Source: a virus (lineage: Duplodnaviria; Heunggongvirae; Uroviricota; Caudoviricetes). Taken from it: a DNA stretch of 64,000 nucleotides. Position numbers: made by a program. Shown here piece by piece: positions 25,101 to 64,000 of the stretch (position 1 is its first letter; each line of letters starts with the position of its first letter). Location of the stretch: positions 1 through 64,000 of IMG/VR virus record IMGVR_UViG_651053022_000007; one strand, written 5' to 3'.

Positions 25101-28100
25101 TGCTCTGCCGCCCTTTTTAAAGTGAATTTTGTGATGTGGTGAATGCGGCTGAGCGCACGCGGAACAGTTAAAACCAAAAACAGTGTTATGGGTGGATTCT
25201 CTGTATCCGGCGTTAATTGTTAACTGGTTAACGTCACCTGGAGGCACCAGGCACCGCATCACAAAACTCATTGTTGAGGGCGCGATAATGAAAACGTTAT
25301 TACCAAACGTTAATACGTCTGAAGGTTGTTTTGAAATTGGTGTCATGTTTTCCCTGCTTCATAATCATCACGCCATGCTTCAGCATCAGCGGCACTTCCA
25401 CCGCGTAACTCTGCATAATCCATTAACAGTTCATGCCATTCTTCAAAACTGGCGTTATATTTAGTTGAACCAAAATCAGCCATTTTGTTCTTCCTCTTCG
25501 TCTTTTATTTCGTGGTATGAGTAATTGCAGTAGTTAAAGAAAATATCTTTAGCTTCATCCTGTATTTCATCTGGTGTTGCATCATCATCCACTTCGAATT
25601 CATCCTCGAAATCTCCACCGGCTATTCCCGTTTCAATAATTATTTTGAATTTTCGCATTTCACTACCGCCCTTTCGGACGGCCTCCTGATGTTCTGAGGG
25701 TGCAGGAATCCCTCCGGTTAAGGATTTAATAAAAATCGTTTCTGATTTAAATCTTCAGTATTTAGTTGTTAGTCGGTTTATAGCCTTTATGCTTCGGCCT
25801 TATTTCTCAGCCATACACAAACCGGGCCATCTTCGGTGTCATGTATTGAACCAATAAACCATCCATTGCCCTCTGGTCGTTCCGGTTCCCATGCAGAAAT
25901 ATCAGCATCACACGCATCAAGGTCAGCACATCCTTCATCTCTGAAGCAGAGGACGTATTGAAGATTATTTTCCTCCATCCAGGCGTTAAACTCTTCCGTT
26001 GAAATATATTCCCGACCGTCACAGAATTTTTCATATTCAGGATGCGTCCAGTAGCCATATTCATCACGTACTACTGGTATTTCTTTAATTTCATTCATTT
26101 CTGTTCTCCCACGTTTTCAGACTTTCACCACAGAACGGACAAAATGAAACCCGAACTGGTAATTTAGAAAATTCACCGGAACGCAACATCACAAAATCAG
26201 GACCGCGAGTTAAACTCTCATTCCAGATTTTGTATATCAGCAGACCTTTTCGCATCGTGTATTCAGCATCACGCTCAAGGGACTTTGCCACACTGCGCAT
26301 ATCAACGGCACCACATTCTGCTTTCAGTTCCGAAGCCATCTCATGCCCGGCGGCAACTAACCCTTTGATATTACTTTCCATCTTTACCCTCGCTTATCCA
26401 CATAACTTATTGATAACATTGATAACTAAAAAGATCGTCGATTCAGAACTCTTCGATATTCCAGCCACCACCTGCTTTCTTTGGTTTAACCGTTACCCCG
26501 ATGATTCGGAACGGATACTGATCTGCGGCGACTTTGGTTTTCACCCTGGCGTCGTCGGTCCAGAAACCTTTCACTTCGTGCAGTTCCATCTCGCCGGTGG
26601 CGAGCATCACAGCAAAATCGGGCGTATAGAACGTGTTGTCAGCTAACCGCAGCTTGATACCCTCAAATCGATACCAGACGATTTCTCCTGCACGTTTACG
26701 CAGCTCAAGGTGCTGGCAATACGCAGATTCTGTTTTGTTCATCTGACCTGTTTTGAGTCGACCAAGAGCCTGTATCTGTTTTCTCATGATTTACCTCTGA
26801 GGTAATTAAAAACCACATAAGACACGAAATCAATAGATTTTAGAATATTTTATTACCTAACAGGTAATTGTCGAGGCGTAAAAAAATGCGCTATCGCGCT
26901 GGTATTACTTGATAAATCCTGCCGCCTTTCCCCGCCTGTATTCCTCCATCAGCCACTGCGCCGGTGTTATTCCCCCAAGGGTGGCGGCGTTAGGCATGCA
27001 CCCGAAACTTCGCCCTGGTGGATGGTAAACGTCTCTCCCTGTGTCCGGAGGCGTACTCATGGGCTCTGGCTTTGCCTGTATGCTGATCACCGGATCGGGT
27101 ATCTGCTGTCCGGAAGCCACCTTTTTCGCCCAATCATCGAGCAGCCTGCGTGCGTGTTTCTCAACCTCAATCTCGCTAAGCTGGCGCTGATACATTGCAC
27201 GGCGGGTATCACATACGACCCAGTACATAACCGGATGTCGCCACGGGAATCTTTCGGGACCACCAGGATATAAACTTTTTTCCTTGCTGTACCGGTGAAA
27301 CTCCGCCATCACATCGTCAATGGTGACGCCAAGAACCATCTTGCTGTCTTTGCACCACTTGATAAATTGCCCTGGAGACGGCCAGAACGGAGATTCACTG
27401 GCGCGGGCGTGGCGCATACCAGCAGAAACCTGTTCACGGGTTCGGATCCCCCCTTCGGCAAACGCAGCAATCCACTGCTGTTTTGCAGCAACTTCCTGCT
27501 CTGGCGTCTTCAGGTTGGTTACCACTGCCGCCGGAAACAGTTGTTTCAGCTGTTTAAAAAGGGCATCAACAAGCCTCTCTGCTGACATGTTCACCACATT
27601 GTCATTGTTGACGTACTGATGCTCATAACCTGACATGCGAGAAAGGGCTTCTCCGTCACGGTTTTGTATCGCGGTAAAAACGTTGTTCACAAGAAATCCT
27701 CCCATGCTTCAGGGCTGTTCCAGTGCGGAACGTTGTTATCAGGTAATGTTGATTGCTTCTGTCTGCTAATCTGCAGCCGCCTTGCCAGCTTCTGCTCCCA
27801 CTGTGCCTGATGGTATGCCTTACCCTCAGCCATCCAGTAAATTCTGAACTCTGCAAGTTCCTGTGCCGTTGGCAGACTGTCCAGGTAGATCCCCTGCAAT
27901 GAGCTTTTCCGAAGAAAGTCATCTGATGGCTGCCATTGTTCATGCATGACAAATTTGCCTAATTGCCCTGGCCCACCAGGAGGAACAAAGTTATTCATCA
28001 CGGCGTTGTTTGCTCCGGGGTCATGAGGCACAGAATCCCCGCTTTTTGTCCTGCTCTCCCTCTCTTGGTTAAATGACTGGTTATATGACTGGTTCTGGAT

Positions 28101-61100: not shown

Positions 61101-64000
61101 ATCACCGGAGCATGCGCCACCTGCGCAGCGGTTACCACCCGTTTCATTGCCTCATCAGTAAGACCGGTAGGGATAAACTGCAATTCAGATGCATCAGGGA
61201 ATATGCCGCGCACACGGATTTTAACGAAGTCGCTGTCTTCCCCGTAGTCATCGACCCATTTCTGCAACTGCTGTTTGTTAGTGCCTTCCACCGTCCGGCT
61301 GTCAATCTGCGCAGTTTTCCAGCGGTGTTTATATTTGCGGAAACATTCGCGGAAACGCCCGGTGTTACGTGTAGGGTTTCCGAACGCCACCCAGATAATC
61401 TCAGTGTCTTCGTCCGTAAGCGCACCCTCAGCAACTTCCCACACCAGATCCGCAATGTTCGACGCTTCATCGAATACCACGATGATGCGTTTGCGCTCGT
61501 TGTGTAGTCCGGCGAATGCCTCAGTGTTGTGCTCAGACCAGGGGATTGCGTCAGCTCGCCACCGCTTGTCGTGCCCAGGATCATTGCTGTACATCGCGGT
61601 AGCGGTACAGGTAAACCAGTCTTTCGTGATAGCAAGGTTCGACCACTTGATAATTTCCGGCCAGGTCTTCGTTCGTAGCTGGTTGTCGGTGTTGGCGGTC
61701 ACCACGACCTTACAATCCTCGCAAGTGGACATGCCCCAGTTGATCAGCATTGAGATGAATGCGGATTTACCAATACCGTGACCAGAAGCACGTGCCAGCA
61801 TAAGCGGCTGATAGCGCGTCTCTGGATTCTGCAGGTGATCACGTATCTCTCGGAACGCATCAGCCTGCCACTGACGTGGACCGGTGGCATGTGCCAGTTC
61901 AGTCCCCTCTTCCCCCCACGGGAACGCATAGATGGCATAGCCAAGCGGATCGTGAGTGAACCCTGCAATATCCTCGATCAACTGCTCTTCAGGAGATAAC
62001 GCTGTATCTGTCACTGATTACCATCCTGACGTTCTTTGAGTCGCTTCCTGGCTGCTGCTATGCGATCAGCAATTGTCACATTCACATTAACATCCAGGCG
62101 TTCTTTGAATGCGTTGACGTCGACGTGCTTACCAATCAGTTCGAGGTTCTTCACCTTGTCAGGCCATTTAATTTTTTTGAGGATTGTCTCTATCGAATCC
62201 TCGTTCATGTTCATGATGGTCGATGACAGATCAAAGCCACTAAGCGTAGTGCGCCAGATTTTCGGCCACTCACGGATTGGTTTAAGGCTCCCATCGTCGT
62301 TGAGGATGTCGATCACGTCCATCTGGTCGATCTCCACCAGGCGCATGAGAACGTAATCAGCACTGACGCGCATTCGTTTGTTGCGCTCCTCCATCAACTC
62401 GGCAATCCGTTTTTGAATGCGTTCATCGCGCATCATGACACTGGCTTTAACTGCCGCTGTATTTGGAGAGAATCCTGCGTTAATCGCTGCCTGAGTCTGG
62501 TTTTCAGGCGTTTTGATGTATGACTGGCAATAAGCCTCCTGCATTGCTGTTAGTGGCTTAAATTGCGTTGATTTGCGTTTATAGGTTTTAGGTTCAGCAG
62601 GCATCATAACCACCGTGGTAATAGTTACCGTTGTGGTAATAGTACCATGCAAAATAAAGCCGCCATAGTTGGCGGCAGTATTCAAAACCCATCAAATTCA
62701 TCATGCATAATCTACTCGTGACATGTCACACTATTAATTTCGTTTCATGCCAGCCTTTAGTCACCCAGCATTGCGAGTCACCATTACACGGGCATGAATT
62801 AACTGGAACTCTCTCGCCGCACTTACCGCAACATTTTCTGCTGATCGATTTTATACGCCCGCGCACGCGTGCATCATCCTGGCGGATCAGTAACGCTATA
62901 TACTCACCAAATTCGTAAGGCGCACGCCCGGGGCGACGCGTGGCACAGTTACGCTCCAGCATTTCAATTTCCTGAGCATCAAGCACAATTTCCAGCTTAC
63001 GCACACCAGATGCAGCTTGTCTGGCTCTCTGAGCGGCTTTGCGCTCTGCTGCTGATTTAGCCATCAATATTTACCTTTATCGCGAACACATTTACCGGTT
63101 TATCGCCGATGTGCGGATGTGTGATTGTCTTGATTTCATATCCGTCATACGGAACATCAATTCTACGGCTGGGATCGTCGCGCTTCGGATATCCCTTTGT
63201 GATAATCAGGCGGTCATATTCCCGGAACATAATTCGCTTATTCCAGTAGTCATTACACAGGCGATACTCTTCCGTTTTATCTCCGCGAATCATGGCATCG
63301 AAGTATTCACCTTTGACGGCAAGTTGCAGGTTAGCCATTACCGCACCTCCAGTCTCCATACCGCCTGACCAATCCGGCTGGCATGGTTATCTTTAGATAC
63401 TGTTCCGTCTTTAGCAATCTCCATAAGAATTTTGCGCAAATCTTCCGAACGCCATTCTTCATCAGGAAATTCCTTCTCCATTGCCAACCGCAAATTCCAG
63501 GTTGCCATCCTGAATGGATATTCCCCGCCGAGAGCTTTATCTTGCAGGGCAGCCCGGGAACGCATCACCTGCAAAACCTTCTCTTTTACATCCATCATTT
63601 CGCCTCCTGCGGCGGTTCCGGTAGCGGAATCCAGTGAGTTGCTTGCTCAATACCATTACCCGGCTTAATCGTTGCATCTCCGCGCCGAAAGGTGCTTCCG
63701 GTATAGCGTGCGGAGCATATTAGCGGCTCAACCAGATCACTATCGAAATTCACCGAAATAAGTACGTTCTGATTCTTTTTCGGCATTCGCTCACTACAGC
63801 TTATCCAACCATCCGGAGTTACCGGAGTTGGTCCATCGAATTCGGGCATGTCAGGACCTTTTCTGATAGCTTTAGCCAGCTCCAGCGGGTCATCGTAAAG
63901 CCAGTCGCCAGTTTGTGGGTGATTTGCTTCTGCAAGCTGCGCAGCCCATTCAAGACCATCTTTTTGACCTTGGAGATAATCAAGCGGCAACTCTTCATGA

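Follow-up and report, generated by a model that had tools for sequence, protein, structure and literature searches.

Apparent excised form of an Escherichia coli ST131 Uetakevirus-type prophage abutting a mosaic of plasmid and island DNA

Phages that combine a lambda-like early region with partly T7-like tail and ejection proteins were described years ago, and the genus Uetakevirus (epsilon15, phiV10) is defined by this combination. In phiV10, epsilon15 and the E. coli phage vB_EcoP_ZX5, the published attP is identical to the 17-bp core ATTGAGTGGGAATGATT discussed below and is located 190 bp 5' of int, whereas attB is the 3' end of guaA (PMC9782041). Lysogens of ZX5 release phage spontaneously at ~1e7 PFU/mL (PMC9782041). 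Here, we analyzed a stretch of viral DNA of 64,000 nucleotides (the window), the larger part of which had been predicted to be a temperate phage joining lambdoid regulation to a T7-like virion module. Judged by its sequence, window 25346-64000 is a Uetakevirus genome, that is, a temperate E. coli podophage of the phiV10/epsilon15 type, and the phage, its combination of modules, its integrase and its att site have all been published already. The finding is thus an ordinary one, because the window carries a near-complete copy of a well-known temperate podophage, in excised gene order and with attP intact.

Strain 1446 of E. coli ST131 carries, between guaA and yfgI, a prophage (NZ_CP184058, 1378447-1417765) whose genes and gene order match those of the window phage. 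This prophage showed no mismatches to window 25346-35846 (10,501 bp), 99.70% identity to 35830-41789 and 99.98% identity to 42478-64000. No counterpart was found in it for the 688 bp at 41790-42477, and, compared with this prophage, only ~589 bp of the phage circle is missing, beyond the window end. The strain 1446 copy is integrated, with int beside guaA and the spanin gene beside yfgI, whereas the window copy has an intact attP; the two also differ in the 688-bp accessory segment, and the break in the window circle falls within the nin region. Nucleotide identity of the region was 96-98% to phiV10, HEMP4, phiv142-3 and the O157 typing phages. As expected of a Uetakevirus, gene order was shared with phiV10 (94-98% identity for most modules) and epsilon15 (76-81%). 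Two further records were set aside: phage BP9 (138 kb), which looks chimeric (a Vequintavirus record, one end of which is a block of early, int and lysis genes resembling Uetakevirus), and PH444 (115 kb), which is flagged UNVERIFIED_ORG and contains a phage of the window type with one att core.

The phage begins on the left within a nin-region gene (WP_000753053 family, 25346-25483, minus strand), of which the 5' 138 nt (46 codons) are present and whose stop codon comes from foreign DNA (25343-25345). Also on the minus strand are small nin-region genes (25476-26787; DUF7167 at 25476-25658, a 103-aa protein at 25787-26098, an ORF at 26091-26381 and DUF1064 at 26443-26787), a lambda-P-like helicase loader (26905-27705, PF06992), a DnaT-like initiator with HTH_36 (27687-28502) and a cro-like gene of 76 aa (28869-29099). 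The last is divergent from an HTH repressor gene on the plus strand (29254-29838), with which it forms the immunity switch. Thus, the divergent repressor/cro pair and the lambda P-type loader of a lambdoid early region were both identified, but neither a cI with the S24 autopeptidase nor a lambda O initiator: domain search of the repressor returned HTH domains only and no S24 peptidase domain, and the initiator is of the DnaT/HTH_36 type. The early-left operon (29992-34380, plus strand) starts with two small ORFs and encodes a YqaJ nuclease (30443-31342), RecT (31352-32374), an AlpA-type HTH protein (32424-32672), a PerC-like protein (32782-33081), an MT-A70 methylase (33062-33724) and a Ser/Thr phosphatase (33601-34380), all on the plus strand. 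The late nin-region genes (62726-64000, minus strand; a hypothetical protein, an ASCH protein, a second hypothetical protein and the start of DUF551) stand at the right edge, and the phage continues past the window end.

The P4-type integrase gene lies at 34383-35639 (minus strand; PF13356, PF22022 and PF00589). The original prediction had regarded the att site as not identifiable; however, the published core ATTGAGTGGGAATGATT occurs once in the window, at 35830-35846 (minus strand), and corresponds to the last codons and stop of guaA. We delimited this core as the stretch common to the ST131 attL and attR, from their alignment with the window. In the window, the core lies 190 bp upstream of int, with phage DNA on either side. 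This agrees with the Uetakevirus att site, in which the core precedes a P4-type integrase gene by about 190 bp and attB is the 3' end of guaA. In all 10 listed complete chromosomes encoding an identical tailspike (10/10), yfgI comes after the spanin gene, an arrangement that constitutes attR and therefore marks the integrated state in those 10 chromosomes. Neither guaA, yfgI nor a second core copy was found in the window. The prediction would have been contradicted by canonical att sites flanking the element and an int at one end, beyond the window; this does not apply, because the single attP is intact inside the window, and no attL/attR hybrid sites flank the element there. Phage DNA flanks int on both sides, just as had been proposed, and the integrase is internal because the window shows the excised (circular) permutation, in which an uninterrupted attP separates int from the spanin gene. 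As far as gene order and attP can tell, the phage DNA is in its excised, circular arrangement and is not an integrated prophage, which agrees with the unintegrated configuration suggested earlier. Besides the spontaneous release from ZX5 lysogens, a precedent for the excised form is a related phage deposited as a circular 41-kb 'plasmid' (pHL15EC-2), in which int comes after the spanin gene; it serves for gene order only, since it lacks the exact 17-mer core. A search of viral contigs with an attP 43-mer gave 0 matches.

All five copies of GTGACGGTAT, against 0.08 expected, lie within 35118-35927 on both sides of the core (plus strand at 35118; minus strand at 35371, 35461, 35696 and 35918) and are candidates for arm-type binding sites of Int. 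A terminator-like hairpin (35762-35785, minus strand; stem 35762-35770/35777-35785, then a T run) separates the core from int; in the integrated state, it comes immediately behind the guaA stop codon that integration restores. The other perfect 9-bp hairpin is at 35667-35675/35696-35704. Two 9-bp-stem hairpins had been placed at 35790-35950 and offered as attP-like features, but both perfect hairpins (35667-35704 and 35762-35785) fall outside that interval, which contains imperfect inverted repeats only, overlapping the core. We rejected the hairpins as attP, as they represent the terminator and a possible arm-site pair.

The lysis cassette (35957-37754, minus strand) consists of an Rz-like spanin with DUF2514 (35957-36439), a GH19 endolysin (36436-37065), a holin (37055-37363) and a second holin-like protein (37350-37754). 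The 820-aa tailspike (37827-40289, minus strand) combines an N-terminal virion-binding domain, a K5-lyase beta-helix and a C-terminal S74 chaperone domain; it is thus a K5-lyase tailspike without a T7 fibre domain, and not the gp17-like spike originally named. The accessory region (40486-43331, mixed strands) includes an 85-aa ORF, a Bro-N antirepressor-type protein (41059-41754, plus strand), the variable segment that differs from strain 1446 (41790-42477) and a 186-aa protein (42771-43331, minus strand).

The virion genes are all on the minus strand. Three large internal (ejection/core) proteins (43334-50278), of 850 aa, 565 aa and an SLT-domain protein (47582-50278), are accompanied by a T7-gp14-family protein (50203-50748, PF24072), a 154-aa internal virion protein (50748-51212), an 823-aa tail nozzle (51212-53683) and a 202-aa adaptor homologous to epsilon15 gp11 (53683-54291). 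The head module (54288-59168) contains a Bbp16-type cement protein (55008-55445), a GP7-type major capsid protein (55497-56489), a protease (56498-57199, PHROG 458) and the portal (57489-59168, PF12236), and also a gp10-type staple, a small ORF and a 98-aa protein. What had been called a scaffold is this protease-family protein. The terminase large and small subunits are encoded at 60539-62014 and 62011-62685 (PF03592), and a phage-borne tRNA-Arg (UCU) lies on the plus strand at 59817-59893; the ST131 prophage has a tRNA-Arg (UCU) as well. Thus, the complete temperate podophage gene set expected for 25346-64000 is present in the predicted order, including the terminase and portal genes and the three large internal proteins, one of them with SLT.

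These genes correspond to the known life cycle of this type of phage. The P4-type integrase would recombine the 17-bp attP core with the identical guaA 3' end, and the choice between lysogeny and lysis would be set by the HTH repressor and the Cro-like protein, with participation of antirepressor-type proteins. The genome would be replicated by the DnaT-like initiator and the lambda-P-like loader, and then packaged by the terminase into an epsilon15-type head. The K5-lyase tailspike is predicted to cut the capsule, after which DNA could be delivered by the short tail (adaptor and nozzle) and the internal ejection proteins. In the window, the sequence is opened at 25346, within the nin-region gene, and abuts unrelated DNA there.

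The left end of the phage is a blunt joint (25345|25346), at which a lambdoid fragment ending in a truncated dicB meets the inside of the phage nin-region gene, with no microhomology and no IS end; the predicted left boundary (25340) was within 6 nt of it. A 39-mer across the joint had no match in the genome, viral or metagenome contig collections, and no complete E. coli genome spans it. Exact-protein look-up gave no record of the DicB' fusion ORF across the joint or of the truncated TraI at 5758/5759. Base 25346 comes immediately after a 44-nt stretch that is matched exactly in a second nin copy (20360-20403), and in five independent short-read assemblies contigs end at the equivalent base or at most 2 nt away. 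It should be noted that this coincidence is biased, because the look-up, which used the 46-aa truncated nin ORF, can return only contigs ending at that codon. Of the 41 matches in viral contigs to the initial 60 nt of the phage segment, none started at the pattern. The window contains no N spacer or explicit contig-boundary mark.

The 25 kb to the left of the phage is a mosaic of truncated repeats and of fragments from plasmids and islands, with ~15 blunt joints, among them 146/147, 5758/5759, 18195/18196, 19677/19678 and 20251/20252. It includes a chromosomal repeat present in seven copies (1-146; probably the rrn spacer), IS1 fragments, traI cut at 5758, sat interrupted within the gene at 18195, a tRNA-Lys cut at the anticodon loop and an IS3-family transposase fragment (20089-20251); IncF tra and leading-region genes are also found within the window. 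For several of the pieces, there are 100% identical ST131 sequences that occupy normal contexts elsewhere, and none of the ~15 other blunt joints was found in 5,426 complete genomes. The sequence shows the identity of the phage (the ST131 guaA-yfgI prophage type), its attP, the excised permutation and the anatomy of the joint. We consider it probable that the joint is not biological but a contig end or arbitrary linearisation point of the excised genome, to which other contigs were joined. An assembly or contig-concatenation artefact at 25345|25346 is, by itself, a fairly probable origin of the joint, and the excised DNA presumably arose from spontaneous induction. As a separate observation, the 44-nt repeat also has a copy in the lambdoid fragment, which runs on through it unbroken, although a simple de Bruijn collapse would have broken it too; this and the lack of an N spacer count against an artefact.

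If the joint were real, a circular phage would have been captured into a mosaic plasmid or island beside the lambdoid remnant, by illegitimate or short-homology-assisted recombination. Such a phage would be trapped at a non-att position but intact, excising only by other routes and travelling with the IncF transfer genes. We regard this as unlikely, although the sequence is continuous without Ns and IncF tra and leading-region genes share the window. A homologous nin copy (20252-20552, 94-95% identical) also lies 5 kb to the left in matching orientation, so that the breakpoint falls in the only phage part with homology elsewhere in the window. On the other hand, the crossover is outside this homology and its partner is dicB, without microhomology; a homologous single crossover into the lambdoid nin copy was rejected because dicB, not the homologous region, is the partner at the joint. 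There are also ~15 other blunt joints in the same 25 kb, including ones in the seven-copy repeat, the tRNA gene and an IS interior, and no such joint occurs in the 5,426 complete genomes, though the pieces are 100% identical to ST131 DNA; the 25345|25346 joint is absent from every collection searched. It seems more doubtful still that an intact Uetakevirus with a functional attP was captured att-independently in a mosaic IncF-associated region and is spread by conjugation instead of guaA integration. A real joint would mean that a whole temperate phage hitch-hikes on conjugative-plasmid DNA, which would bear on the spread of phages and capsule depolymerases in ST131.

A tandem double lysogen at guaA (attL-phage-attP-phage-attR), in which attP is the junction of two copies, would contain an intact attP between complete phage arms, as seen here. 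However, DUF551 and terminase genes should then be found leftward of the nin region, where lambdoid dicB stands instead at 25345, and the window is without the second core copy, guaA or yfgI, so that this arrangement is very improbable. An ordinary integrated prophage with its att sites and true ends outside the window has practically no chance of being correct, as it is refuted by the intact single attP, both arms of which are phage DNA where integrated copies have guaA or yfgI as one arm, as the left end (25346) lies within a gene at a distance of 10.5 kb from the core, and as no supporting evidence was found.

On the preferred reading, that of the excised ST131-type phage, the copy has little biological importance, being nearly identical to a common ST131 prophage. 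Its practical value is one of caution: an 'internal integrase' can simply reflect the excised form of a sequence, and the DNA flanking the phage in this window resembles an assembly patchwork.

With regard to T7 (Autographiviridae), the predicted combination held for the lambda-like early region and, in part, for the tail and ejection proteins, but not for the capsid, protease, cement, staple and tailspike, or for a phage RNA polymerase. The portal belongs to the T7 gp8 family (PF12236, 624 bits) and also weakly matches a T7-like cyanophage portal. In similar order come a putative gp11-like adaptor, a nozzle, a gp14-family protein (PF24072 T7_gp14, 31.2 bits; cut-off, 27) and large internal proteins, of which one has SLT, and the epsilon15 RefSeq note records that HHpred matched gp11 with T7 tail tubular protein A. 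For the adaptor and nozzle themselves, Pfam gave no family and phmmer no T7 chain, their closest solved chains being named nozzle and connector (8ck1), and no T7 protein was matched among solved structures by phmmer. Two large internal proteins had no family match in the profile search; one is the 850-aa protein, which occupies an internal virion protein position. Unlike T7, the window phage is temperate, with an integrase and a repressor, and carries the SLT domain in the first large core protein, not in the last. Profile search of the phage proteins identified no T7-type capsid, scaffold or gp17 fibre N-terminal domain, and no single-subunit phage RNA polymerase family in the phage ORFs; all four ORFs of at least 800 aa are otherwise assigned (spike, nozzle, SLT protein and 850-aa protein). 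An epsilon15-type head was supported by PF20911 (494 bits), PF21190 and PHROG 458, and the identical prophage is annotated with a capsid staple. The virion module is thus epsilon15-type and T7-like only in part, in its portal family and, probably, in its gp11-like adaptor and its gp14-like and SLT-bearing core proteins.

phiV10 (Uetakevirus phiV10, NC_007804) is syntenic with the window throughout and has in common with it the attP core, integrase, repressor, replication, head and tail genes. It differs in carrying an O-acetyltransferase gene (oac) and an O157-specific fibre, whereas the window phage lacks oac and has the K5-lyase spike; RecE/T are fused in phiV10 but YqaJ and RecT are separate genes here, and the large internal proteins are also different. 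The Salmonella phage epsilon15, the type Uetakevirus, is more distant (just 76-81% nucleotide identity) and differs in its tailspike and seroconversion genes. Nevertheless, both epsilon15 and vB_EcoP_ZX5 have the architecture seen in the window, sharing with it the attP core and guaA 3'-end integration (PMC9782041), as well as the GP7 capsid, the Bbp16-like cement and the gp10 staple.

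Phage DNA of the phiV10/epsilon15 type occupies 25346-64000 of the window. In megablast searches of phage records, it was 96-98% identical to phiV10, HEMP4, phiv142-3, O157 typing phages 9 and 10, TL-2011b and vB_EcoP_ZX5, and 76-81% identical to epsilon15; the genus of these related phages is Uetakevirus. A much closer match was obtained with complete E. coli genomes than with phage records: the prophage located between guaA and yfgI in the ST131 strains 1446, 1447, AZ 189, AZ 190 and 4/0 matched at 99.9-100%. On the basis of local alignment with the strain 1446 prophage, 25346-35846 was 100% identical (0 mismatches in 10,501 bp), 35830-41789 was 99.70% identical and 42478-64000 was 99.98% identical. 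Window positions 64000 and 25346 are separated by a gap of 589 bp in the coordinates of this prophage, and thus ∼98.5% of one phage circle is present in the window. The phage is already known and is almost identical to a prophage that is common in ST131. The only part unlike the strain 1446 prophage is an accessory segment of 688 bp (41790-42477), which carries a 147-aa ORF (42036-42479); in its place, strain 1446 has a gene with a frameshift and a related phage one for a YafO-family toxin.

The original prediction of a temperate phage combining lambdoid regulation with a T7-like virion module was largely correct, and its gene content was borne out by ORF listing, tRNA scan and family searches. 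The left end contains small nin-region genes, a lambda-P-like loader and a DnaT-type initiator (minus strand), followed by a divergent pair of a cro-like gene and an HTH repressor and by the plus-strand early-left operon (YqaJ nuclease, RecT, AlpA-type HTH, PerC-like protein, MT-A70 methylase and phosphatase). To the right of the P4-type integrase gene (34383-35639, minus strand) are a lysis cassette (spanin, GH19 endolysin and two holin-like proteins) and the gene for an 820-aa tailspike (37827-40289, minus strand). An accessory region including a Bro-N protein separates the tailspike from three large internal virion proteins (850, 565 and 898 aa), after which come a T7-gp14-family protein and another small internal protein, the nozzle (823 aa) and adaptor (202 aa), and head genes for staple, cement, GP7-type capsid, protease and portal. 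Genes for the large and then the small terminase subunit lie to the right of a tRNA-Arg (UCU) gene (59817-59893, plus strand, opposite to the structural genes), which is also found in the ST131 prophage and the O157 typing phages.

In the ST131 prophage, int adjoins guaA and the spanin gene adjoins yfgI. Alignment of the spanin-int spacer of the window with the hybrid attachment sites on the guaA side (attL) and the yfgI side (attR) of this prophage revealed one exact stretch common to all three, ATTGAGTGGGAATGATT, around which the left arm in the window runs on as attR and the right arm as attL. An attachment site, previously considered not identifiable, could therefore be located: the attP core is present in a single copy at 35830-35846 (minus strand), 190 bp upstream of the int start. 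For phiV10, epsilon15 and vB_EcoP_ZX5, the identical 17-mer is the published attP core, lying at an equal distance from int, with attB located at the guaA 3' end (PMC9782041). Integration thus restores the guaA 3' end, since the final guaA codons including the stop are contained in the core and a terminator-like hairpin (35762-35785) comes after it. This hairpin and a second one (35667-35704) are the two 9-bp hairpins predicted in the int-lysis spacer, which do exist but both lie outside the proposed interval of 35790-35950. In addition, GTGACGGTAT occurs five times within 35118-35927 (0.08 expected by chance), flanking the core on both sides, and is confined to the attP surroundings and the 5' part of int. 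These copies are candidate arm-type sites for the arm-binding domain of the integrase.

With attP intact and phage DNA as both arms, the window represents an excision product in circular/virion gene order and not an integrated prophage, which supports the unintegrated configuration suggested to explain the internal integrase. The usual state of this phage is integrated: the spanin gene was followed by yfgI in all 10 complete chromosomes with an identical tailspike among the matches listed. Precedents for the excised form are the spontaneous release of about 1e7 PFU/mL from ZX5 lysogens (PMC9782041) and a related genome deposited as a 41-kb circular 'plasmid' (pHL15EC-2), where int comes next after the spanin gene. 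The latter record comprises the whole phage genome and is one of several public records holding this phage type in odd settings; others are BP9 (PP488543), a Vequintavirus record of 138 kb at one end of which lies a Uetakevirus-like block of early, int and lysis genes, and PH444 (PP350014), which is 115 kb long and flagged UNVERIFIED_ORG.

Phage identity begins at 25346, within a 58-codon nin-region gene of which only the first 46 codons are present. To the left is a 5.1-kb immunity/replication fragment of a second, lambdoid prophage (20252-25345; nin copy, DUF977, O-like HTH protein, YdaT, cro, S24-type cI, ydfB, ydfC and the start of dicB), which shares about 99% identity with the ompW prophage in EC931 and breaks off near codon 19 of dicB. 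The nin copy of this fragment (20252-20552) and the nin region of the phage have the same orientation and are 94-95% identical. The joint reads GGTGTCA on the lambdoid side and TGTTTTCC on the phage side, with no microhomology, IS end or duplication at this position. None of the complete E. coli genomes spans it (every match begins at 25346 or 25347), a 39-mer across it was absent from three public contig collections, and no fusion ORF across it is on record. The phage nin gene matches the second nin copy exactly over 44 nt (20360-20403 in the latter), position 25346 being the first base past this match, and contigs from five independent short-read assemblies end at the same base or at most 2 nt away, a coincidence biased by the exact look-up, which returns only contigs ending at that codon. 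The 44-nt match and the contig ends tie the breakpoint to sequence repeats.

The whole flank (1-25345) is a patchwork of shortened pieces. Chromosomal sequence without an annotated feature (1-146), whose median copy number per genome is seven and which we take to be probably an rrn spacer, is followed by the terminal 118 nt of IS1 (147-264), a phage Zn-finger ORF, a 119-nt autotransporter-repeat fragment (591-709), the traD 3' end and traI (710-5758, traI truncated at 5758), a 105-nt internal fragment of IS1 (5860-5964), the F leading region (5960-11377; ssb, parB-like gene, psiB, psiA and hok), IS421, an island piece from the papI region (13188-15785) with 100% identity to ST131 genomes, the 3' part of sat cut within the gene (16155-18195), tRNA-Val, tRNA-Lys truncated at its anticodon loop, and a transposase fragment of the IS3 family read as IS600-like (20089-20251). 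A fragment of ∼95-120 nt resembling a Gly/Thr/Asn-rich autotransporter-type coding repeat was observed four times in both orientations (591-709, 13087-13187, 15894-16033 and 18192-18300; 77-96% alike), each copy at a fragment border.

About 15 blunt joints were found in this 25-kb flank versus none in the next 38.6 kb. None of the flank joints was present in 5,426 complete genomes, although the pieces as such match ST131 DNA from normal settings exactly; the flank looks like joined contig ends, not a natural replicon. Because about 15 joints are absent from complete genomes and short runs into multi-copy elements typify contig ends, the left joint of the phage probably also reflects contig ends, or an arbitrary linearisation, joined to other contigs. 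That the sequence contains no Ns and that the lambdoid fragment is unbroken at its own 44-nt repeat speak against such an artefact. We consider a real capture event rather unlikely.

The spike, predicted to be gp17-like, had no T7 fibre domain and consists of a K5-lyase beta-helix (PDB 2x3h, E = 5.8e-185) and an S74 intramolecular chaperone, suggesting that the phage targets E. coli with the K5 (heparosan) capsule. Its length and domain make-up match those of the chromosomal K5 eliminase ElmA. In the public collection, 994 blocks list exactly this 820-aa protein.

The T7-likeness of the virion module held only partly. On the one hand, the portal belongs to PF12236 (624 bits) with a weak match to a T7-like cyanophage portal, one small internal protein exceeded the T7_gp14 threshold (31 bits versus a cut-off of 27), the 898-aa internal protein has an SLT domain, gp11 of epsilon15 (homologous to the adaptor) was matched by HHpred to T7 tail tubular protein A according to the RefSeq record of that phage, and the nearest solved structures (8ck1) bear the names connector and nozzle. 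On the other hand, the GP7-family capsid, Bbp16-type cement and gp10 staple are of the epsilon15 type and unlike T7, the presumed scaffold is a protease-family protein, and no phage RNA polymerase was found in the phage segment. No T7 protein among solved structures was reached by phmmer. This mix of modules is the definition of epsilon15-like phages and not a new chimera.
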